A DNA stretch of 64,000 bases. Source: Candidatus Doudnabacteria bacterium RIFCSPHIGHO2_02_FULL_42_25 (GTDB lineage: Bacteria > Patescibacteriota > Doudnabacteria > UBA920 > O2-02-FULL-48-8). The notes under the pieces are model-generated. The model worked only from the letters and a program-made list of their open reading frames with translations, was not told the DNA's origin and did not search any database. Made by a program: the position numbers and the translations under genes. The DNA lies in the NCBI GenBank assembly GCA_001777665.1, contig MFEQ01000006.1, forward strand, positions 128,880-192,879. The letters are read 5' to 3'. Below are positions 28,816 to 35,392 of the stretch, piece by piece. Numbering within the stretch: the first letter of the stretch is position 1; the number at the start of each line of letters is the position of its first letter.

Positions 28816-29476
28816 TTGCTATTTGTTTCTCTGTTATCGGGCCTACTCTTAATATTTTAGCATCTTTAATCATAGAAACCACTGTGGATGGTTTAGTTTT
28901 CCGGAGTTTGCCACCATCTAGGTAGAAATCGGGCTTTCCGCCAGCTGGCGGATTTGAACTTTGAAATTGCTTTTTTACTTGCTCCACCGAATAAGTATTG
29001 GGTTGTCCAGAAACATTGGCGGATGTCGTGGTGATCGGTTTACCGAACTTTTTCACGAGTTCTAATGCAATTTTGTTCTTCGGCCAACGGATGCCCAGTG
29101 TTCCAGTTCCGGCTGATAATTTTTTCCAAGACTTCCCTTTTGCCTTAAGTGGCAAAACAATCGTCAAGGGGCCTGGCCAAAACTTTCGGATTAACTTCTT
29201 CGCATCAGGAGTTACCTTCACAATCCGACTTAGCCATTTACTACCATACTCTGTAGTATGATAGTATTCGCCAGGGATTATTACATGAGTTGGCTTTCGA
29301 AAGTGACGGCCCTTGAGTCGATAAAGTTTGGCCACTGCTTCTGGATTTGTCGCATCAACAGCCAAACCATAAGCGGTGTCAGTTGGGTAAACGACGATAC
29401 CACCAGCTTTGAGGATTTTTACAGCGAAAATTATTTCCGCTATTCTTCTCCCCTTGCGGGAGAAGATGTCAGCCAT
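28775..29476 (-). CDS. tsaC: L-threonylcarbamoyladenylate synthase (TsaC/YrdC/Sua5 family)
   Basis: VYPTDTAYGLAVDATNPEAVAKLYRLKGR...KPITTTSAN YrdC motifs. Start taken at MADIFSRKG (29476), not track ORF 29566. Confidence 0.8.
   Translation of the reverse strand: MADIFSRKGRRIAEIIFAVKILKAGGIVVYPTDTAYGLAVDATNPEAVAKLYRLKGRHFRKPTHVIIPGEYYHTTEYGSKWLSRIVKVTPDAKKLIRKFWPGPLTIVLPLKAKGKSWKKLSAGTGTLGIRWPKNKIALELVKKFGKPITTTSANVSGQPNTYSVEQVKKQFQSSNPPAGGKPDFYLDGGKLRKTKPSTVVSMIKDAKILRVGPITEKQIANALNTQKISLLFP
29443..29468. repeat. 25-nt hairpin-containing direct repeat, copy 1 (inside tsaC 5' codons), flanking DUF559 gene
   Basis: tcttctccc-cttgc-gggagaagatg; copy 2 at 29888-29913 is catcttctccc-gtcaa-gggagaagatg. 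Confidence 0.6.
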
Positions 29477-29840
29477 TTCGGCTTTTGACAAGCCGGCTGA
29501 CAGATGAGGGGGAGTTGAGGTAGTCTTTGATTTTATTAATAAGCTGTTTTTCATGTTTAAGTTCACTATTCCAAAACCTAAGAACGATAAAACCTTGAGA
29601 TTCTAAATGCTTACCCCTTGTTGTATCTTTTATTTTTGCTTCAGCTTGACGGTGAGGATTACCGTCCAGCTCAATAATTAACCTTTTTTCAAAACAACAA
29701 AAATCAACTATGTAATTATCTATCCAAACCTGTCTTCTGAACTTATACCCCAGCTGACGATCTTTAATTAAAAACCAGAGTCTCTTCTCTTCAGGTGTTT
29801 GTTGCTTTCGTAATTCTTTTGATAACTTAGCCTTTGGCAT
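29469..29840 (-). CDS. DUF559 / Vsr-like endonuclease-domain protein
   Basis: 123 aa. ...FKFRRQ..IDNYIVDFCCFEKRLIIELDG..H... typical of DUF559 (very-short-patch-repair-endonuclease fold). Stop overlaps the tsaC start. Confidence 0.65.
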   Translation of the reverse strand: MPKAKLSKELRKQQTPEEKRLWFLIKDRQLGYKFRRQVWIDNYIVDFCCFEKRLIIELDGNPHRQAEAKIKDTTRGKHLESQGFIVLRFWNSELKHEKQLINKIKDYLNSPSSVSRLVKSRNG

Positions 29841-29922: not shown

Positions 29923-32829
29923 TTACTTAACCACGAAATTTATCAATTTATCCTGAACGAAAATCTCTTTGACTATTTGTTTGCCTTCCAGGTGACGCTT
30001 GACGTTTGGATCTACTATCACTTTTAATCGAACTTCGTCTTGGGAGGTGCCTACAGGAAAATCCAAAGTCGCCCGAACCCGGCCCAAAACTTGTACAACT
30101 ATTTTTACGTTTTTATCTTCAGTCATTTTTTCATCAAACTTTGGCCAGGGTTGTGTATGGATAGAATCTGTCTGCCCAAGTTGGCTCCATAATTCCTCTG
30201 TGATGTGGGGAGCGAAAGGTGCTAGTAAAATCAAAAATGTTTCCCAGTTTGCTTTCGACATCTGTTTATTTTCATTCAGGAATTCCATAAACGCCGCAAT
30301 TGATGTGTTGAATTTAAAATTCGGAATATCTGAAGTGATTTTTTTGATGAGTTTGTGTAACCCCATCTCGACCGACGGGAGAGATCGCTCTTGAGAGGGA
30401 TTTCTCACTTCGTTCGAAATGGTTCTAAAAACCTTATCTAAGAACCTTCTAGCGCCGATTAGACCTTTGGTATTCCAAGGCTGACCATCTTCAAACGGTC
30501 CCATGAACATTTCATATATACGCATGGAATCAGCACCCACACTTTCCACCACTTCGTCAGGATTGACTACATTACCCCTACTCTTACTCATTTTCTGACC
30601 ATCCGCCCCTTGGATCAATCCGAGATGACGAAGTTTATTAAAGGGTTCTGCAACTTTCACAAATCCAGCGTCAAACAAAAATTTTGTTAAAAACCGGGAA
30701 TAAAGTAAGTGAAGTGTTGCGTGTTCGGGTCCGATGACATAAAGATCCACTGGCATCCAATGATCGACTTTTGACTGTTCAAAAATTTCTTGGTCATTAT
30801 GCGGATCAGTATATCGCAAATAATACCAAGAAGAATCAAAGAAAGTATCGAGAGTCTCTGGTTCTCTTTTGGCAGGTCCGCCACAATTCGGACAACTAAC
30901 ATTTAAGAATTGTTCTGAACTGGCGAGCGGAGGCATTCCTTTGGGGCGAAAATCGACATCGTCCGGCAGAACCACTGGTAAATCTTTTTCAGGGACTGGA
31001 TGAATTCCACATTTTTCGCAATTGATCATCGGGATGGGCACGCCCCAATATCGCTGCCTGGAGATAGACCAATCACGGAGTCGATACTGAACTTTAGGTG
31101 TACCGAAATCTTTAGCCATTTGAGATCTAATCGTCGAGGAACTAACATCATTGTATTTCCCAGAATTCATAATCCGACCTTCGCGAGTATAAGGTAGTCT
31201 GCGATCACCTTCATCATTCACCACCCGAACAATTGGCAATTCAAATTTTTTCGCAAATTCAAAGTCACGCTCATCGTGTGCCGGGACAGCCATAATCGCT
31301 CCTGATCCATAAGTCGACAACACATAATCCGCAACCCAGATTTGAATTTTATCTTTCGTTGCCGGGTTAATCGCAAAAGCCCCAGTGAATACTCCGGTTT
31401 TATCTTTTTCTAGAGCAGTGCGTTCTAGTTCAGTTTTCTTAGCTGCACTTTCTACGTAGTTAACTACGTAGTTTTTCTGTTCTTTGGTCGTAATCTGGCT
31501 AACTAGAGGATGTTCTGGAGCCAAAACCATATACGTCGCACCAAAAATTGTATCCGGCCGGGTCGTGAAAACTTTTATTTTTGGTAAAACAACTTTGAGC
31601 AACTCTGGTTCTTGTAGATCAGTAAAATGTTGTTTAGACGCAGTAGTTTCAAAAAACCCTGAACCAAGCTTCTCTTTTAAGAATTTTAAATACTCTCCCC
31701 GTTTCTTGTCCTCTAACAAATCAGATACCACGGTTCGAAATTTCGTTAACTCTTTTACTTTCTCATAATCGATATCCCAACTAAAGTTTTTCCAAAACGG
31801 TCGTTCTATAGAGCCTGGGAATGTTTTATCAGTAGCAGAAGCAATCAAAATTAATCCCATAATACGACTGTTGTGTCTCATTAGCACTTTTTGCGCGACA
31901 ACACAACCTAAACTATGACCAACGATAATTGTATTCTTATCAATTTTACAATTTTGTAAAACAAAATTAACTTGCTCTTCCTCTTTAGGATCATTGCTAT
32001 TTGGCATTTCAGGAGCTTGAACTTTATACCCTTTACTCTCAATTTCTTGCTTCAACCAAGGAATAAAATTTTTGCCTGGCAAACCAGTATAGCCGTGCAG
32101 AATCAAAAAATTTGGCTCGGATTCAAAGTCAACTTTGAAATCAATATCAGCACCTTCAGACCGGCCGATCCAGTTCTTTTGCATTTGCTTCGTGGCTTCC
32201 GGCCAGTCCAGTCCGTCTAAGTCCGCGAGCAGTCTGTCCGCATAGTCCGTGATTTTGAGAAACCACTGTTCCATTTCTTTCTGGATGACCACTGTACCAC
32301 AACGATCGCACTTACCATCTATTACCTGTTCATTAGCCAGAACTGTTTGATCGTTTGGACACCAGTTGATTTTGGCTTTGGCGCGATAAGCTAACCCTTT
32401 CTTATAGAGCTGGATAAATAACCACTGAGTCCATTTGTAATAATCCGGGCTCGATGTATTGATTTCTCGATCCCAATCATAAGACAGTCCAAACATCTGG
32501 ACTTGGCGTTTGAAATTGGCAATATTTTCCGCTGCAACTTCTTTTGGATTCTTCCCGACCTTGATCGCATAATTTTCTGTAGGCAACCCAAAAGCATCCC
32601 AACCCATGGTGTAGAGCACTTCTTTACCATTGGCACGCGTAAATCTAGCATGAATGTCTTCCGCGATATAACCTTTCGGATGCCCGACATGAAGACCTGC
32701 TGCTGATGGGTAAGGGAAAGTTTCTAATTGATAGAACTTGGGCTTCTTTGAATCATCCTTGGCTTGATAAAGTTTATTATCTGCCCAAAATTTTTGCCAT
32801 TTTGATTCTATTTCTTTGTGGTTATACAT
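29923..32829 (-). CDS. leuS: Leucyl-tRNA synthetase with inserted alpha/beta serine-hydrolase domain
   Basis: HIGH (LHVGHP), KMSKS (KMSKSRGN), editing-domain motifs FTTRPDT and AVPAHDERD. Extra ~185 aa between NWIGRSEG and the CP1 domain carries LILHGYTG...IIVGHSLGCV (GxSxG). Start taken at MYNHKEIESKWQKFW (32829). Confidence 0.9.
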   Translation of the reverse strand: MYNHKEIESKWQKFWADNKLYQAKDDSKKPKFYQLETFPYPSAAGLHVGHPKGYIAEDIHARFTRANGKEVLYTMGWDAFGLPTENYAIKVGKNPKEVAAENIANFKRQVQMFGLSYDWDREINTSSPDYYKWTQWLFIQLYKKGLAYRAKAKINWCPNDQTVLANEQVIDGKCDRCGTVVIQKEMEQWFLKITDYADRLLADLDGLDWPEATKQMQKNWIGRSEGADIDFKVDFESEPNFLILHGYTGLPGKNFIPWLKQEIESKGYKVQAPEMPNSNDPKEEEQVNFVLQNCKIDKNTIIVGHSLGCVVAQKVLMRHNSRIMGLILIASATDKTFPGSIERPFWKNFSWDIDYEKVKELTKFRTVVSDLLEDKKRGEYLKFLKEKLGSGFFETTASKQHFTDLQEPELLKVVLPKIKVFTTRPDTIFGATYMVLAPEHPLVSQITTKEQKNYVVNYVESAAKKTELERTALEKDKTGVFTGAFAINPATKDKIQIWVADYVLSTYGSGAIMAVPAHDERDFEFAKKFELPIVRVVNDEGDRRLPYTREGRIMNSGKYNDVSSSTIRSQMAKDFGTPKVQYRLRDWSISRQRYWGVPIPMINCEKCGIHPVPEKDLPVVLPDDVDFRPKGMPPLASSEQFLNVSCPNCGGPAKREPETLDTFFDSSWYYLRYTDPHNDQEIFEQSKVDHWMPVDLYVIGPEHATLHLLYSRFLTKFLFDAGFVKVAEPFNKLRHLGLIQGADGQKMSKSRGNVVNPDEVVESVGADSMRIYEMFMGPFEDGQPWNTKGLIGARRFLDKVFRTISNEVRNPSQERSLPSVEMGLHKLIKKITSDIPNFKFNTSIAAFMEFLNENKQMSKANWETFLILLAPFAPHITEELWSQLGQTDSIHTQPWPKFDEKMTEDKNVKIVVQVLGRVRATLDFPVGTSQDEVRLKVIVDPNVKRHLEGKQIVKEIFVQDKLINFVVK

Positions 32830-32837
32830 GAATTCTC

Positions 32838-32912
32838 CTGCCCGCCCGCAACGCCTGAGCAAGACCGCAAGCAAAAAAATCAGGCTTGCGATGGCGGGCG
32901 GGCCATTTCTTT
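32838..32912. repeat. GC-rich long hairpin repeat (copy 1) in leuS 5' region
   Basis: cccgcccgcaacgcctgagcaaga...tcaggcttgcgatggcgggcggg. Reverse complement of 63058-63122 has the same arms with a different loop. Confidence 0.65.
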
Positions 32913-32942: not shown

Positions 32943-33764
32943 CTATCTTATATTAAACAATTTCTTCGCATTTGAGAATGTCTGGAATGCGACCTCTTCA
33001 GGTTCAACCTTATTTAGCTCTGCAATTTTTTCGACAATATACCTCACATAACTCGGCTCGTTGCGTTTTCCACGGTATGGCGGAGGTGTTAAATATGGCG
33101 CGTCAGTCTCTGTCAGTAATCTATCAGCCGGCGTGTTCGCTACCACTTCTGCAAGTTTCCCGGTTTTATCAAAGGTCAAAATGCCATTCAGAGCGATGTA
33201 AAATCCTAAATCCAAAAACTTTTTAGCTATTTCCCAAGTATCCGTAAATGAATGTGCCACACCTTGCAATCCTGCATATTCACTTTTCAAAATTTCTAAC
33301 AAATCGGCATAGGCGTCTCTGCAATGAATAATCACTGGTAGTTTGTGCTTTTTCGCAAAGTGTAATTGTTTTACAAATTCCTCTTTCTGTTTTTTGATAA
33401 CAGATTCTCGATCACTATCTGAAGGCAATCGAAAATAATCCAATCCACACTCACCTACTGCAACAACTTTTTCTGTCAGCATCTGCTCGTAGTCCGACTC
33501 AACGAAAACTTCTGTTCGGGATTGAAAATGACTTTCTTCTTCGTCCAACATCTGCTGATAAGTATGCACTGGGTGTAGACCAATCGCAGCAAAAACTCCT
33601 TCCGGATAAATTTTCGCCACTTCAACTGCTAATTTAGATGTATCAGTTTGCGTGCCGACATTGATCATCCAAGTATTTCCATCTAGTGCTCGTTTGATAG
33701 TTTCGGATTGATCATCTTTAAATGCTGCGAAGTTGACGTGGGTATGGGTGTCAAAGTATTTCAT
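32943..33764 (-). CDS. tatD: TatD-family metal-dependent DNase/hydrolase
   Basis: MKYFDTHTHVNF ... GLHPV ... GECGLDY ... IHCRDA, TatD motifs. Start at 33764. Confidence 0.85.
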   Translation of the reverse strand: MKYFDTHTHVNFAAFKDDQSETIKRALDGNTWMINVGTQTDTSKLAVEVAKIYPEGVFAAIGLHPVHTYQQMLDEEESHFQSRTEVFVESDYEQMLTEKVVAVGECGLDYFRLPSDSDRESVIKKQKEEFVKQLHFAKKHKLPVIIHCRDAYADLLEILKSEYAGLQGVAHSFTDTWEIAKKFLDLGFYIALNGILTFDKTGKLAEVVANTPADRLLTETDAPYLTPPPYRGKRNEPSYVRYIVEKIAELNKVEPEEVAFQTFSNAKKLFNIR

Positions 33765-33946
33765 GAGGTTTATCGAGTTATTCCCCCTCTTAGGATAAGA
33801 GATGCTCACTCCCTCATCAACCGCCGGGGGCTGGGATAGGGGGAGTTACGGTCAGAGCGTTAAACTGCAGCCTAACCCTTATAGATAACCCCTCCTAACC
33901 TCCCCTTATATTAAGGGGAGGAACAACTGCTGCGTTTTTCAAATCT
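33765..33946. repeat. GC-rich hairpin-dense intergenic element between metG and tatD
   Basis: cctcccctta-tat-taaggggagg perfect 10-bp stem, ctcttaggataagag, and ccgccgggggctggg in an otherwise AT-rich genome. Confidence 0.5.
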
Positions 33947-35392
33947 TTATTCAATCTTTTGGAACAACGGCTCTGGTTTCTTTATATCTCCACTTTCCAA
34001 AACTGCTTTAATTTTTTGGGCGGTCTCGGGTAGAACTGGTGCGAGCTTGAGTGCTATGTCATAAAGCAGTGCGGCCAAATTCAAAAGCAACTCTTTGACT
34101 TTGTCTGGGTGTTCTTTGACCAACTCCCACGGTTTGGCTTTATCGATCAATTGATTGGCCCAAGCAATCTCTTCCCAAATCCGAATTAATCCCCCGGCAA
34201 AATCAGAATTATAAAAAGCATCAGACGCAGCGGACAGATCCTTCGGTGACGCTACAAACTCTTCGATGTGACCATCCAGATATTTTTCTATCATGTTTGT
34301 GGTACGAGAAAACAAATTTCCTAGGCCATTGGCCAAATCGCCATTGAAACGAGCTTTCAATTTCTCTTCACTGACATCGCCGTCAGCTCCAAATGGAATT
34401 TCCCGCAACATAAAGTATCGCACTGCCTCGCTCCCGTATTTCGCCACCCAATCATTCGGGTCGATGGCATTGTCCAAACTTTTCGACATCTTCTCACCAT
34501 TGATCGTAAAAAATCCATGCGCAAAAACTCTTTTTGGTGTATCGAGTCCTATCGCCAAAAGTAGTGCTGGCCAGATAATACAGTGGAACTTGATAATATC
34601 TTTCCCCACTATATGTAAATCCGCTGGCCAAAATTTCGCAAAATTTTCAGGATCTGATCCAAACCCGACACCAGAGCAATAATTGAATAACGCTTCCACC
34701 CAAACATACACAGTTTGGTTCTTATCCCAGGGAATCGGAATTCCCCATTTGACGTTCGGTCGGGAAATCGCAATATCTTCGAGGCCTTGTTTGATAAACG
34801 ACAAGACTTCGTTCTTTCGGGAGAATGGACGAATTTCTAATTGATCTGAATCAATCAATTCTACAAGTTGTTTCTGGTAATCAGACAGTTTAAAAAACCA
34901 ATTTTTTTCTTTTAACTTCTCCGGTTTAGTTTTATGATCTGGACAAAGTCCGTTTACTAATTCTGATTCTTTAATATACGCCTCGTGCCCGACACAATAC
35001 AATCCTTCGTATTCGCCTTCATAAATTTTTCCCGAAGCTTTGAGTTGATGTAAAAAAATCTCCACTGCCGCTTCATGTTCTGGGTCTGTGGTACGGATAA
35101 ACTTATCTGGGGCTATGCCGAGTTGGTCAAAAGCCAAAGAAAATTGTGCGGCAACGGTGTCAGCAAATTCCTTTGGTGCCTTACCGGCTTTTTTAGCAGC
35201 GGCTTCAATTTTTGCGCCGTGTTCGTCTGTGCCAGTTTGAAAAAATACTTCTTCACCTAATTGGCGATGCAGACGAGCCAAAACATCCGCCGCAATCGCC
35301 GGATAAGCTGACCCGATATGTGGTTTATCATTCACATAAAATATCGGGGTCGTGACATAGAATTTTTTCTGCTCGTTTTCCATAGTTTTCAA
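33947..35392 (-). CDS. metG: Methionyl-tRNA synthetase (short form)
   Basis: PIFYVNDKPHIGSAY (HIGH-class), KMSKSLDN, zinc-knuckle region. 481 aa. Confidence 0.9.
   Translation of the reverse strand: MKTMENEQKKFYVTTPIFYVNDKPHIGSAYPAIAADVLARLHRQLGEEVFFQTGTDEHGAKIEAAAKKAGKAPKEFADTVAAQFSLAFDQLGIAPDKFIRTTDPEHEAAVEIFLHQLKASGKIYEGEYEGLYCVGHEAYIKESELVNGLCPDHKTKPEKLKEKNWFFKLSDYQKQLVELIDSDQLEIRPFSRKNEVLSFIKQGLEDIAISRPNVKWGIPIPWDKNQTVYVWVEALFNYCSGVGFGSDPENFAKFWPADLHIVGKDIIKFHCIIWPALLLAIGLDTPKRVFAHGFFTINGEKMSKSLDNAIDPNDWVAKYGSEAVRYFMLREIPFGADGDVSEEKLKARFNGDLANGLGNLFSRTTNMIEKYLDGHIEEFVASPKDLSAASDAFYNSDFAGGLIRIWEEIAWANQLIDKAKPWELVKEHPDKVKELLLNLAALLYDIALKLAPVLPETAQKIKAVLESGDIKKPEPLFQKIE

Follow-up and report, generated by a model that had tools for sequence, protein, structure and literature searches.

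A serine hydrolase cassette of the YdeN/RBBP9 type within the editing domain of a Patescibacterial leucyl-tRNA synthetase

What is a gene-sized run of extra residues doing inside the editing region of a leucyl-tRNA synthetase (LeuRS), and does it serve the enzyme that carries it? The question is raised by a LeuRS gene of a Patescibacteria/CPR bacterium with a tiny genome, which lies in the 64,000-nucleotide stretch of DNA analysed here (the window). Its open reading frame (29923..32874, minus strand) gives 983 amino acids counted from a TTG and 968 from the ATG at 32829; the shorter form is the right one because AGGAG precedes this ATG by 6 nt and the orthologue P0011 likewise begins MYNHKEIE, which upholds the start and length preferred in an earlier sequence-only reading of the locus. 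The protein scores 1022.9 bits against the bacterial LeuRS model TIGR00396 (leuS_bact; cut-off 548.4), in two stretches parted by the insert, and matches Thermus thermophilus (Tt) LeuRS at 2e-247; an AF2 model of the whole protein (pLDDT 89.7) retrieves 2BTE and 4AQ7 with Foldseek (TMt 0.82-0.84). Domain order, HIGH and KMSKS signatures, Zn hairpin and C-terminal domain are those of the T. thermophilus (1H3N/2BTE) and Escherichia coli (4AQ7) enzymes, and the threonine-rich and AVPAHDxRD motifs of CP1 are kept as in bacterial LeuRS generally. Unlike Tt LeuRS, the protein lacks the leucine-specific domain (aa 740-746 align to Tt 578-637) and has 182 extra residues in a hairpin. Retention of the CP1 motifs TTRPDT and AVPAHDERD, noticed earlier, is borne out by T422, T423, R424, D426, T427, D519, R521 and D522, all invariant in 86 LeuRS whether insert-bearing or insert-less. 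As judged by these comparisons, the gene encodes an intact bacterial LeuRS with both its synthetic site (HIGH, KMSKS) and its CP1 editing site unaltered.

In the alignment to T. thermophilus LeuRS, residues 235-416 (182 aa) stand in place of Tt residues 238-241, a 4-residue hairpin turn, with junctions between VDFESEP and NF and between VVLP and KIKVF. The spacing from NWIGRSEG to TTRPDT is accordingly 195 residues here against 17-31 in insert-less relatives. The earlier estimate of some 185 extra residues between NWIGRSEG and FTTRPDT thus becomes a delimited insert of 182, and the coordinates first assigned to it, 31570-32130, were right to within a few codons (31582-32127 from the alignment). 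Its placement upstream of the CP1 editing domain needs correction, as the Pfam editing-domain profile (PF13603) is split in two by the insert, with profile positions 22-182 coming after it. The insert replaces the turn of the first editing-domain beta-hairpin, directly after the N-terminal beta-strand linker (Table 1).

Table 1. Positions in the window of the LeuRS gene, its conserved sites and the inserted hydrolase domain.
Feature	Coordinates	Strand	Basis or comment
Shine-Dalgarno-like AGGAG	32835..32839	-	6 nt 5' of LeuRS ATG, read from sequence
Leucyl-tRNA synthetase CDS	29923..32829	-	Bacterial type, 968 aa from ATG, plus stop codon
HIGH signature (HVGH, aa 47-50), class I catalytic site	32680..32691	-	H47, G49, H50 invariant
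NWIGRSEG (aa 219-226)	32152..32175	-	Conserved block before N-terminal beta-strand linker of editing domain; left anchor of insertion site
YdeN/RBBP9-type alpha/beta serine hydrolase domain (aa 235-416, 182 aa)	31582..32127	-	Alignment to Tt LeuRS, Pfam, PDB, AF2/Foldseek
HG motif, H245-G246 ('LILHG')	32092..32097	-	Usual oxyanion-hole place after strand 1; H 75/77, G 76/77 insert-bearing homologues
Nucleophile elbow G-H-S306-L-G (aa 304-308)	31906..31920	-	S306 75/77, G308 77/77; between strand 300-305 and helix 307-319
Catalytic acid position D370-L-L-E373	31711..31722	-	E373 aligns with Asp of YdeN/RBBP9 'D-x-x-V/L-P'
Predicted catalytic histidine His401 ('KQHF', aa 399-402)	31627..31629	-	77/77; aligned with YdeN GHF histidine
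CP1 editing domain, remainder (aa 417-575)	31105..31581	-	PF13603 206 bits, profile positions 22-182
TTRPDT, CP1 editing motif (aa 422-427)	31549-31566	-	Motif position
AVPAHDERD, CP1 editing motif (aa 514-522)	31264-31290	-	Motif position
KMSKS loop (aa 746-750)	30580..30594	-	Motif position

That the insert is a compact YdeN/RBBP9-like alpha/beta hydrolase, as first proposed, is agreed by family HMMs, PDB matches and structural modelling. Taken alone it scores 40.0 bits against Pfam Abhydrolase_1 (PF00561; cut-off 25.8) and 36.0 bits against Ser_hydrolase (PF06821; cut-off 22; 32.7 bits with the full protein), the latter aligned over profile positions 1-93 of 172. YdeN (7.9e-12) and RBBP9 (6.6e-7) were its best sequence matches in a phmmer search of the PDB. 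The AF2 model of the insert (pLDDT 93.2, pTM 0.90) retrieved the RBBP9/YdeN structures 2QS9, 1UXO and 7OEX at E~3e-12 with TM 0.74-0.80 over 184-187 columns, the next matches reaching E 1e-7 only, and every fold match was an alpha/beta hydrolase. Like YdeN of Bacillus subtilis (1UXO) and human RBBP9 (2QS9, 7OEX), both of PF06821, it is a lid-less alpha/beta hydrolase of ~180 residues, marked by an HG motif, the nucleophile elbow GHSxG and, at the C-terminal end, an xHF histidine; unlike these free proteins, to which it is only ~22% identical, it forms an internal domain of an aminoacyl-tRNA synthetase (aaRS). Its clade is Patescibacteria-specific and carries E-Q (285-286) and E-P (407-408) where YdeN-like proteins have D/E-W and F-P-E.

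The catalytic residues of this domain are near-invariant, as is G308, though the inserts are only 25-64% identical to one another; the GHSLG elbow picked out in the sequence-only reading is confirmed among the 77 insert-bearing homologues (Table 1), two of which have lost the nucleophile (GHGLG in P0052, GHNLG in P0079). Of the acid and histidine region that had been placed at WDIDYEK...HF, the histidine stands, as His401, and the acid does not, falling instead in 'VVSDLLED' at E373 or possibly D370. Column 373 is always acidic (D in 47, E in 30 of the 77), D370 is present in 72/77, and the E-type inserts, this protein included, carry R377 (30/30) and Y380 (27/30). In the model E373, aligned with the Asp of YdeN/RBBP9, sits at the N-terminus of a helix and not in the usual loop, and the V-P of the acid motif is replaced by K-R; Asp370 lies three residues earlier. 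A normal lineage-specific extension devoid of a triad, the alternative raised at the outset, fails on the conservation of Ser306, acid 373 and His401 in 75-77 of the 77. The conserved triad fits an active enzyme with purifying selection on the triad, and we regard the insert as almost certainly a genuine, folded and catalytically competent hydrolase cassette. The alpha-amine anchor of RBBP9, E108, aligns with E342, a column with E in 9 and D in 9 of 77 and so not conserved, the conserved neighbour being an Arg (R343, 59/77); Glu108-type amine recognition defines RBBP9 specificity, not membership of PF06821. At E<=1, Pfam detected no Hint, homing-endonuclease or transposase domain in the insert, and Pfam and NCBIfam no homology to CP1, YbaK/INS, AlaX/tRNA_SAD or DTD. 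Defence-system models of PADLOC-DB matched the insert and two free-standing relatives with 0 families.

Among the 120 closest LeuRS, a survey of relatives found ~77, all Patescibacterial, with an insert (192-211 aa) at this position. The syntenic orthologue P0011 (L004) has none; it shows 24 nt where 549 nt stand here and is the closest relative of both the N-terminal (89% identical) and the C-terminal (83%) parts of this LeuRS. Identity between inserts hardly tracks identity between cores (rho 0.15), and LeuRS cores show mosaic N- and C-terminal similarities. In P0051 and P0020 the LeuRS cores are 84% identical, whereas the inserts, at 25%, belong to different hydrolase subfamilies at the same site; one subfamily has been replaced by another at an identical position in close relatives. 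Third-position GC is 0.29 in the insert and 0.40 elsewhere in the gene; at two other loci it is 0.39 and 0.47 against 0.65 for the host gene, the insert being the lower in 3/6 loci. Neither a target-site duplication nor a terminal repeat was found at the insert, only a 5-nt CCAAA microhomology, and there was no second copy in the 64-kb window and no toxin or biosynthetic cluster near the locus. From these comparisons the insert is an accessory, exchangeable cassette in most, but not all, Patescibacterial LeuRS, evolving almost independently of its host gene. Rapid turnover and absence from the closest orthologue show that it is dispensable for LeuRS function. The set of hydrolase inserts to which this allele belongs is widespread in Patescibacteria, is swapped rapidly and has so far gone undescribed.

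Neither this hydrolase clade nor this LeuRS loop is confined to the other. Free-standing genes of ~180-190 aa are interleaved with the inserted forms in the domain tree, and the clade has members lodged within ValRS, AlaRS, TsaD, SecA and UvrA, and others joined to Adk, HD, Smr and NUDIX domains. LeuRS account for ~42 of the 59 long proteins among its top 150 representatives, with ValRS, AlaRS, TsaD and a formyltransferase among the remainder; in ValRS the insert sits in a catalytic-domain loop, outside CP1. The same LeuRS loop elsewhere hosts NUDIX, GNAT, ASCH, PD-(D/E)XK-like PF13366 and IS200-type Y1 transposase domains, and one LeuRS (P0185) bears GNAT and hydrolase together. Gain, loss, replacement and horizontal exchange, with presence in unrelated proteins, fit a mobile or accessory cassette. 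Both functional options first put forward, a second deacylation or ester-hydrolysis activity and an exapted mobile insert, gain weight from these data.

What, then, would the hydrolase do? We tentatively favour, at a probability somewhat short of even, an active cassette with a role in cis on compounds of the aminoacyl-ester or adenylate type. The insert would be a serine hydrolase in working order, held where the editing domain hinges on the catalytic body, and its targets at LeuRS may be small molecules of the aminoacyl-ester or aminoacyl-nucleotide kind; candidate substrates are mischarged or blocked aminoacyl-tRNA, non-cognate adenylates and adenylate-mimicking inhibitors. As an optional module for clean-up or protection, it would add to CP1 and not take its place. 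The substrate class, which we hold a little more loosely than the role itself, is suggested because the clade is concentrated in aaRS, enzymes whose chemistry runs through aminoacyl-adenylates and aminoacyl-tRNA (LeuRS, ValRS, AlaRS), and in TsaD and a formyltransferase, and because its characterised relative RBBP9 has both alpha-aminoacyl amides and a drug that is an aminoacyl ester among its substrates: it is a serine aminopeptidase needing a free alpha-amine (PMC8866121), and a reference given in PMC7730578 cites it as an activator of valacyclovir, a valine ester. Mimics of aminoacyl-adenylates are detoxified by known serine peptidase, GNAT and HIT enzymes (PMC7157772), and the GNAT and NUDIX domains found in the same LeuRS family offer a parallel to such detoxifier classes. 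Counting against an aminoacyl role are the fully intact CP1, which leaves no editing deficit to compensate, the poor conservation of the RBBP9 amine-anchor column (E or D in 18/77), the occurrence of the clade in SecA, UvrA, Adk, HD and Smr proteins, which are unrelated to aminoacyl chemistry, the position of the ValRS insert, and the rapid gain, loss and replacement of a dispensable domain that is missing in the closest orthologue. The restriction of the PF06821 match to the N-terminal half and the acid at a helix start also weigh against the proposed explanation. A wider form of it, which we think unlikely, is that Patescibacterial class I/II aaRS, chiefly LeuRS, carry an exchanged in-frame pool of YdeN-type hydrolase, NUDIX and GNAT domains, sometimes two or three together, selected for cis action on aminoacyl-tRNA or adenylate-like molecules. 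Such a pool would amount to a new covalent (Ser-His-acid) proofreading, or to built-in immunity to adenylate-mimicking aaRS inhibitors, and would explain the independent capture of different hydrolase subfamilies at an identical editing-domain hairpin.

The main rival, doubtful in our view yet a serious contender, is that the insert is a passenger, a general small-molecule esterase lodged in a permissive loop with a job unrelated to LeuRS; an essential, constitutively expressed host would give it expression and retention in a streamlined genome, and the hairpin tolerates gene-sized in-frame insertions. The free-standing relatives, the hosts SecA, UvrA and TsaD with the Adk, HD, Smr and NUDIX fusions, the unrelated domains that occupy the same loop, the nearest orthologue without an insert and the ValRS insertion away from CP1 all agree with this. 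Against it, LeuRS is the dominant host, ValRS, AlaRS, TsaD and formyltransferase likewise belong to tRNA or aminoacyl metabolism, the insert has been kept over a deep radiation despite strong deletion pressure on these genomes, and the finding of two hydrolase subfamilies at exactly the same site of 84%-identical cores looks like selection there, or targeting. Another, improbable, explanation is a selfish or homing-like cassette spreading among LeuRS alleles by recombination through highly conserved flanks or by an unknown targeting mechanism, which would persist, like an intein, since an essential gene seldom loses such an insert precisely, and whose hydrolase would serve the element or be incidental. 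The patchy distribution, the decoupled histories of core and insert, the mosaic cores, the lower GC3 in half of the six loci and the transposase- and nuclease-like domains that other LeuRS carry there are in keeping with it, as are two public assemblies that break at ~32202-32237 of the window, beside the insert, one of them with a different LeuRS allele there. Set against these are the lack of intein, homing-endonuclease or transposase features (Pfam at E<=1), of duplicated or repeated ends and of a second copy in the window, the fact that no part in DNA mobility is known for any Ser-His-acid esterase, and a strict conservation of the triad that requires selection on catalysis.

The same conservation makes a non-catalytic structural or regulatory module, whose fold would modulate the swing of the editing domain or protein-protein contacts, very improbable. 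The insert does sit at the hinge-side hairpin, the nucleophile is lost in two homologues and the acid has shifted into a helix in this subtype, but Ser in 75/77, His and acid in 77/77 and HG in 75-76/77, across inserts down to 25% identity, would be unexpected for a scaffold. An assembly chimera, a mis-join that made an artificial fusion, is effectively refuted, and with it the assembly insertion that had been raised at the outset as the second alternative. Two other assemblies of the same organism do break ~50-85 nt upstream of the insert, one with a scaffold gap and a divergent allele there; however, assemblies L002 and L003 are 100% identical to ours across both junctions and the whole insert, no break interrupts the reading frame, the same architecture recurs at this site in >77 independent homologues that come from many projects, and the two ends of LeuRS share P0011 as closest relative.

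Several known systems bear comparison with the cassette. CP1, ProRS INS/YbaK, AlaX and DTD are examples of hydrolases that edit either as modules of aaRS or as free-standing factors in trans, and the insert resembles them in concept, as an extra hydrolase attached to or co-operating with an aaRS and existing in fused and free-standing forms; unlike them it would use covalent Ser-His-acid catalysis, and it has no detectable homology to any of them. To our knowledge, none of the known aaRS editing domains uses such catalysis. Inteins are gene-sized in-frame insertions at conserved sites of essential proteins, sporadic and horizontally spread. The insert shares with them an in-frame, gene-sized presence at a conserved site of an essential protein and precise presence/absence alleles; it differs in having no Hint fold, no splicing residues at its junctions and no endonuclease, and is predicted, from the model, to stay in place as a folded domain. 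The IleRS with an N-acetyltransferase domain (NCBIfam NF040702, 'ileS_w_GNAT'), a curated NCBI 'exception' family, is likewise a class Ia aaRS with an accessory enzyme, but the domain and enzyme are different and the hydrolase-bearing LeuRS has no curated family. By analogy only, the insert may also be set beside MccF (serine peptidase), MccE-CTD (GNAT) and MccH (HIT), accessory, patchily distributed enzymes of comparable classes that inactivate aaRS-targeting aminoacyl-nucleotides, the adenylate-mimicking antibiotics (PMC7157772). The matches listed for the insert by Pfam and NCBIfam at E<=1 include none of the three families, so that no homology to them is detectable, and no toxin or biosynthetic cluster lies close by.

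A non-exhaustive search of the full-text literature found no prior description of a hydrolase insert in LeuRS, and NCBI holds no dedicated family model for such proteins. Proofreading by aaRS is a textbook system; the hydrolytic editing folds known to us are few, and none is an alpha/beta hydrolase. Should mischarged tRNA, adenylates or aaRS inhibitors prove to be its substrates, the hydrolase would bring a new, covalent serine type of catalysis to the self-protection of aaRS or to quality control in translation, would point to what the poorly understood YdeN/RBBP9 family acts on in nature, and would offer a tractable experimental handle on the physiology of uncultured CPR bacteria. Even as a passenger, it would mark one hairpin of an essential enzyme as a hot spot at which enzyme domains are inserted, swapped and lost over short evolutionary times. 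Proteins rarely evolve in this way, and the inserts would chart, as a natural experiment, where LeuRS tolerates an added domain.

The window gene encodes a bacterial-type leucyl-tRNA synthetase (LeuRS), which matched TIGR00396 with 1022.9 bits (cut-off 548.4) and Thermus thermophilus LeuRS at 2e-247 (phmmer). The ATG was preferred over the upstream TTG; an AGGAG lies 6 nt before it and the closest orthologue likewise begins MYNHKEIE, and the protein is therefore 968 amino acids long, as the sequence-only reading had proposed. An AlphaFold2 model of the full enzyme (86 homologues in the input; mean pLDDT 89.7, pTM 0.80) superposed on T. thermophilus and E. coli LeuRS with target-normalized TM-scores of 0.82–0.84. 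The leucine-specific domain is absent, residues 740–746 standing in place of T. thermophilus 578–637, and a similarly short link has been reported in Mycoplasma mobile LeuRS.

The spacing from NWIGRSEG to TTRPDT is 195 residues, compared with 17–31 in relatives without an insert. Residues 2–234 aligned with T. thermophilus 4–237 and residues 417–740 with 242–578; the insert therefore replaces four residues of a hairpin turn. In the editing domain (CP1), this hairpin comes after the beta-strand linker at the N-terminus, and should not be equated with the 'CP1 hairpin' of the literature, a term that denotes a Zn-containing hairpin. The insert was originally placed upstream of CP1, but it interrupts the Pfam editing-domain profile, of which positions 22–182 follow the insert, and is therefore internal to the domain. 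The hydrolase is tethered at a hairpin on the hinge side of CP1, which is otherwise normal.

Features of the LeuRS gene, its insert and the surrounding locus
Feature	Window position (strand)	LeuRS residues	Remark
DUF559 gene	29469–29840 (-)		123 aa; PF04480, Vsr-like endonuclease domain
LeuRS open reading frame	29923..32874 (-)		983 aa counted from TTG
LeuRS start ATG	32829 (-)		
HIGH signature (HVGH)		47–50	key residues invariant in alignment
NWIGRSEG		219–226	motif preceding insert
Hydrolase insert	31582–32127 (-)	235–416	YdeN/RBBP9-like
HG motif		H245, G246	75/77 and 76/77
Nucleophile-flanking His		H305	72/77
Nucleophile		S306	75/77
Nucleophile-flanking Gly		G308	77/77
Alternative acid		D370	72/77
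Acid, homologous to catalytic Asp of YdeN/RBBP9		373	77/77 (D 47, E 30)
Catalytic His		H401	77/77
CP1 motif TTRPDT		422–427	key residues invariant in alignment
CP1 motif AVPAHDERD		514–522	key residues invariant in alignment
Second CP1 insertion hot spot	31180–31221 (-)	537–550	later in CP1
Leucine-specific domain (absent)	30580–30615 (-)	740–750	
KMSKS		746–750	key residues invariant in alignment
Break of contigs L002 and L003	~32202–32237		50–85 nt upstream of insert
TatD-family hydrolase gene	32943–33809 (-)		
MetRS gene	33947–35392 (-)		481 aa, short form, no insert

The identification of the insert as a YdeN/RBBP9-like hydrolase was borne out by every approach used. Alone, it exceeded the Pfam cut-offs for Abhydrolase_1 (40.0 bits) and Ser_hydrolase (PF06821; 36.0 bits), and its closest solved relatives were Bacillus subtilis YdeN (7.9e-12) and human RBBP9 (6.6e-7). 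An AlphaFold2 model of the isolated domain (pLDDT 93.2, pTM 0.90) retrieved RBBP9 (2QS9, 7OEX, 9FCR) and YdeN (1UXO) as the top Foldseek matches in the PDB (E~3e-12, TM 0.74–0.80 across about 185 columns), the next being other esterases at only E~1e-7. Searches of defence-system and curated-family libraries with the insert gave no match, and an intein or homing element was rejected as the insert carries no Hint or endonuclease signal.

Conservation was assessed in 77 non-redundant LeuRS proteins whose inserts are 25–64% identical (see the table). The window protein belongs to a Glu subtype at position 373, in which 'E-D-K-K-R' at the start of a helix takes the place of the usual 'D-x-x-V-P' loop, and Arg377 (30/30) and Tyr380 (27/30) are specific to this subtype. 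The acid had earlier been sought in 'WDIDYEK', which was mistaken, as the column aligned with the Asp of YdeN and RBBP9 is position 373; the other motifs that had been listed hold. Near-complete retention of the triad in inserts this divergent argues strongly for catalysis, and the domain is a folded and very probably active Ser-His-acid hydrolase.

Two other public assemblies of the organism, L002 and L003, are 100% identical to the window across the insert and both junctions. Both break shortly upstream of it: L003 starts at this point, whereas the L002 contig end (2870–2962) carries a divergent LeuRS allele (28 residues) followed by a 10-N scaffold gap. The divergent allele hints at allelic heterogeneity of the locus, with LeuRS alleles coexisting in the sampled population. 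A related LeuRS fragment on a 2109 nt Logan contig (L001; ERR3661022) carries the same hydrolase insert, 58% identical; frameshifts close to the NWIG(K)SEG block and towards the insert end split the fragment into three gene calls, and it is either a pseudogene or the product of unpolished assembly errors.

Among the best 120 LeuRS homologues, about 77 have an insert of 192–211 amino acids at exactly the same site and about 35 have a short loop. The named homologues come from Candidatus Doudna-, Sung-, Taylor-, Uhr- and Pacebacteria and from Paceibacterota. A limited scan of GTDB genomes, dominated by the generic NWIG[RK]SEG pattern, gave at least six full-length fused loci and added Kaiserbacteria, Sungiibacteriota, Peregrinibacteria and two MAGs labelled Candidatus Woesearchaeota archaeon (L012, L013). 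The latter encode a bacterial-type LeuRS 47–53% identical to the window core (LeuRS without the insert), and their inserts, at the same site, are by a narrow margin closer in score to YdeN-like proteins that stand alone than to the clade of Patescibacterial inserts; either the domain was captured independently or the genes were mis-binned or transferred.

The site also accepts other cargo: NUDIX plus hydrolase (P0134, P0136), GNAT plus hydrolase (P0185), tandem hydrolases (P0174), an ASCH domain (P0128), a PF13366 PD-(D/E)XK-like domain (P0103) or an IS200-type Y1 transposase domain (P0187). The second hot spot is just a short loop in the window LeuRS; in about 30% of the closest homologues (P0017, P0026, P0035, P0053 and others) it holds a NUDIX domain of ~160 amino acids (PF00293), with or without a hydrolase at the first site, and some enzymes hold a hydrolase there instead (P0154, P0161, P0199, P0187). 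One homologue, P0074, has an N-terminal extension of ~330 amino acids with a HAD domain.

The closest LeuRS proteins, P0011 (89% N-terminal and 83% C-terminal identity), P0016 and P0018, lack the insert. The gene order MetRS-TatD-LeuRS-Sua5 is shared by the P0011 locus (L004), which is syntenic with the window at about 79% DNA identity and has 24 nt (IKGLSEIP) where the window gene has 549 nt; this comparison revealed no target-site duplication or terminal repeats at the junctions, only 5 nt of microhomology (CCAAA). In both loci the MetRS and TatD genes lie directly upstream of LeuRS, in the window on the same strand. The DUF559 gene between LeuRS and Sua5/YrdC is missing from L004, marking a second recent indel at the locus.

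Insert and core are only loosely coupled. The inserts nearest to that of the window (P0012, P0014; 62–64%) belong to enzymes with cores only 61–64% identical, whereas P0013 has a core 67–76% identical and an insert at only 31%. Spearman's rho between insert and core identity, computed on 3403 pairs of insert-bearing LeuRS, was only 0.15. P0051 and P0020 share 84% of their core residues and 25% of their insert residues, that of P0051 being YdeN-like (NWFPWL...EDW...SDDDKYIP...GHF...EFPE) and that of P0020 of the Patescibacteria type; their nearest neighbours include one insert-less and one NUDIX-only enzyme in a neighbour-joining tree of LeuRS cores for which branch support was not computed. 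GC3 is 0.29 in the window insert against 0.40 in the rest of the gene, and 0.39 and 0.47 against 0.65 in two higher-GC relatives, while three low-GC loci show no difference. Taken together, the insert-less closest relatives, the decoupling, the subfamily swap and GC3 show, at the level of sequence comparison, that the insert has been repeatedly gained, lost, replaced and horizontally exchanged at one precise site, and on the same comparisons it is dispensable for the essential LeuRS function.

When 1.84 billion representative sequences were scanned in full with the insert (HMMER), 1483 matched at E<=1e-3 (255 at E<=1e-10). In the best 150 of these, the long proteins number 59, of which about 42 are LeuRS. 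Other hosts are ValRS (P0153, P0215), AlaRS (P0159, where it separates the catalytic from the editing part), TsaD, a Formyl_trans_N protein, SecA and UvrA, and the hydrolase is also fused terminally to adenylate kinase, HD, Smr and NUDIX. Its entry point in ValRS is a loop of the catalytic domain (between T. thermophilus residues 478 and 479) and not CP1. Free-standing genes of ~180–190 amino acids also exist (P0141 was confirmed in its contig) and interleave with inserted hydrolases in a neighbour-joining domain tree without support values; the gene neighbourhoods of the free-standing P0141 and P0006 held nothing informative. The UvrA and formyltransferase hosts P0190 and P0229 have Trp where all relatives keep Gly (e.g. 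HSLWW for HSLGG), which suggests that their source organisms use code 25 (UGA = Gly; Gracilibacteria/Absconditabacteria) and that the sequences were translated under the wrong code.

We propose that the hydrolase may act in cis on aminoacyl-ester or aminoacyl-nucleotide-type compounds, candidate substrates being mischarged or N-blocked aminoacyl-tRNA, non-cognate adenylates and adenylate-mimicking inhibitors. The proposal draws on hosts that mostly make or handle aminoacyl-adenylates and aminoacyl-tRNA, and on RBBP9, the one well-characterized family member, which is a serine aminopeptidase needing a free alpha-amine (PMC8866121) and is also cited as a hydrolase of the valine ester valacyclovir. 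It draws too on the detoxification of aminoacyl-adenylate mimics by the serine peptidase MccF, the GNAT MccE and the HIT protein MccH (PMC7157772), considered alongside the GNAT and NUDIX domains in this same LeuRS family, and on a patchy occurrence with horizontal exchange, as is typical of genes with accessory or protective roles. Several observations count against it. CP1 is intact, and compensation for a degenerate CP1 was rejected as its motifs are invariant whether or not an insert is present. The amine-anchoring Glu of RBBP9 is not conserved at the aligned position, a neighbouring Arg (R343) being conserved instead in 59/77, and an RBBP9-like anchor was dropped as support for aminoacyl specificity. 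The SecA, UvrA, adenylate kinase and Smr hosts do not fit, and the ValRS and AlaRS insertion points are not adjacent to their editing sites.

The main rival, almost as likely as action in cis, is a passenger esterase that works independently of LeuRS in a permissive hot-spot loop. The remaining readings are progressively less likely. A purely selfish cassette comes next, then a non-catalytic scaffold and last an assembly artefact. The artefact, an objection that the sequence-only reading had raised against itself, was rejected in view of the identical insert and junctions in L002 and L003 and the recurrence of the architecture in dozens of independent genomes. Its other objection, a lineage-specific CP1 extension without a triad, was rejected on the triad conservation in 77 homologues and the Foldseek matches.

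Insert-bearing sequences are already public, annotated as 'leucine--tRNA ligase', 'class I tRNA ligase family protein' or even 'alpha/beta fold hydrolase'. NCBIfam has a curated family for IleRS with an accessory domain ('ileS_w_GNAT') but no dedicated model for hydrolase-bearing LeuRS, and non-exhaustive full-text literature searches returned no description of a YdeN-type or alpha/beta-hydrolase insert in LeuRS or any other aminoacyl-tRNA synthetase. Synthetases with accessory domains are a known kind, of which the hydrolase insert is a new variety. That it stands for a new type of synthetase-associated hydrolysis is a realistic prospect, and the way in which the LeuRS insertion site evolves is unusual in itself.
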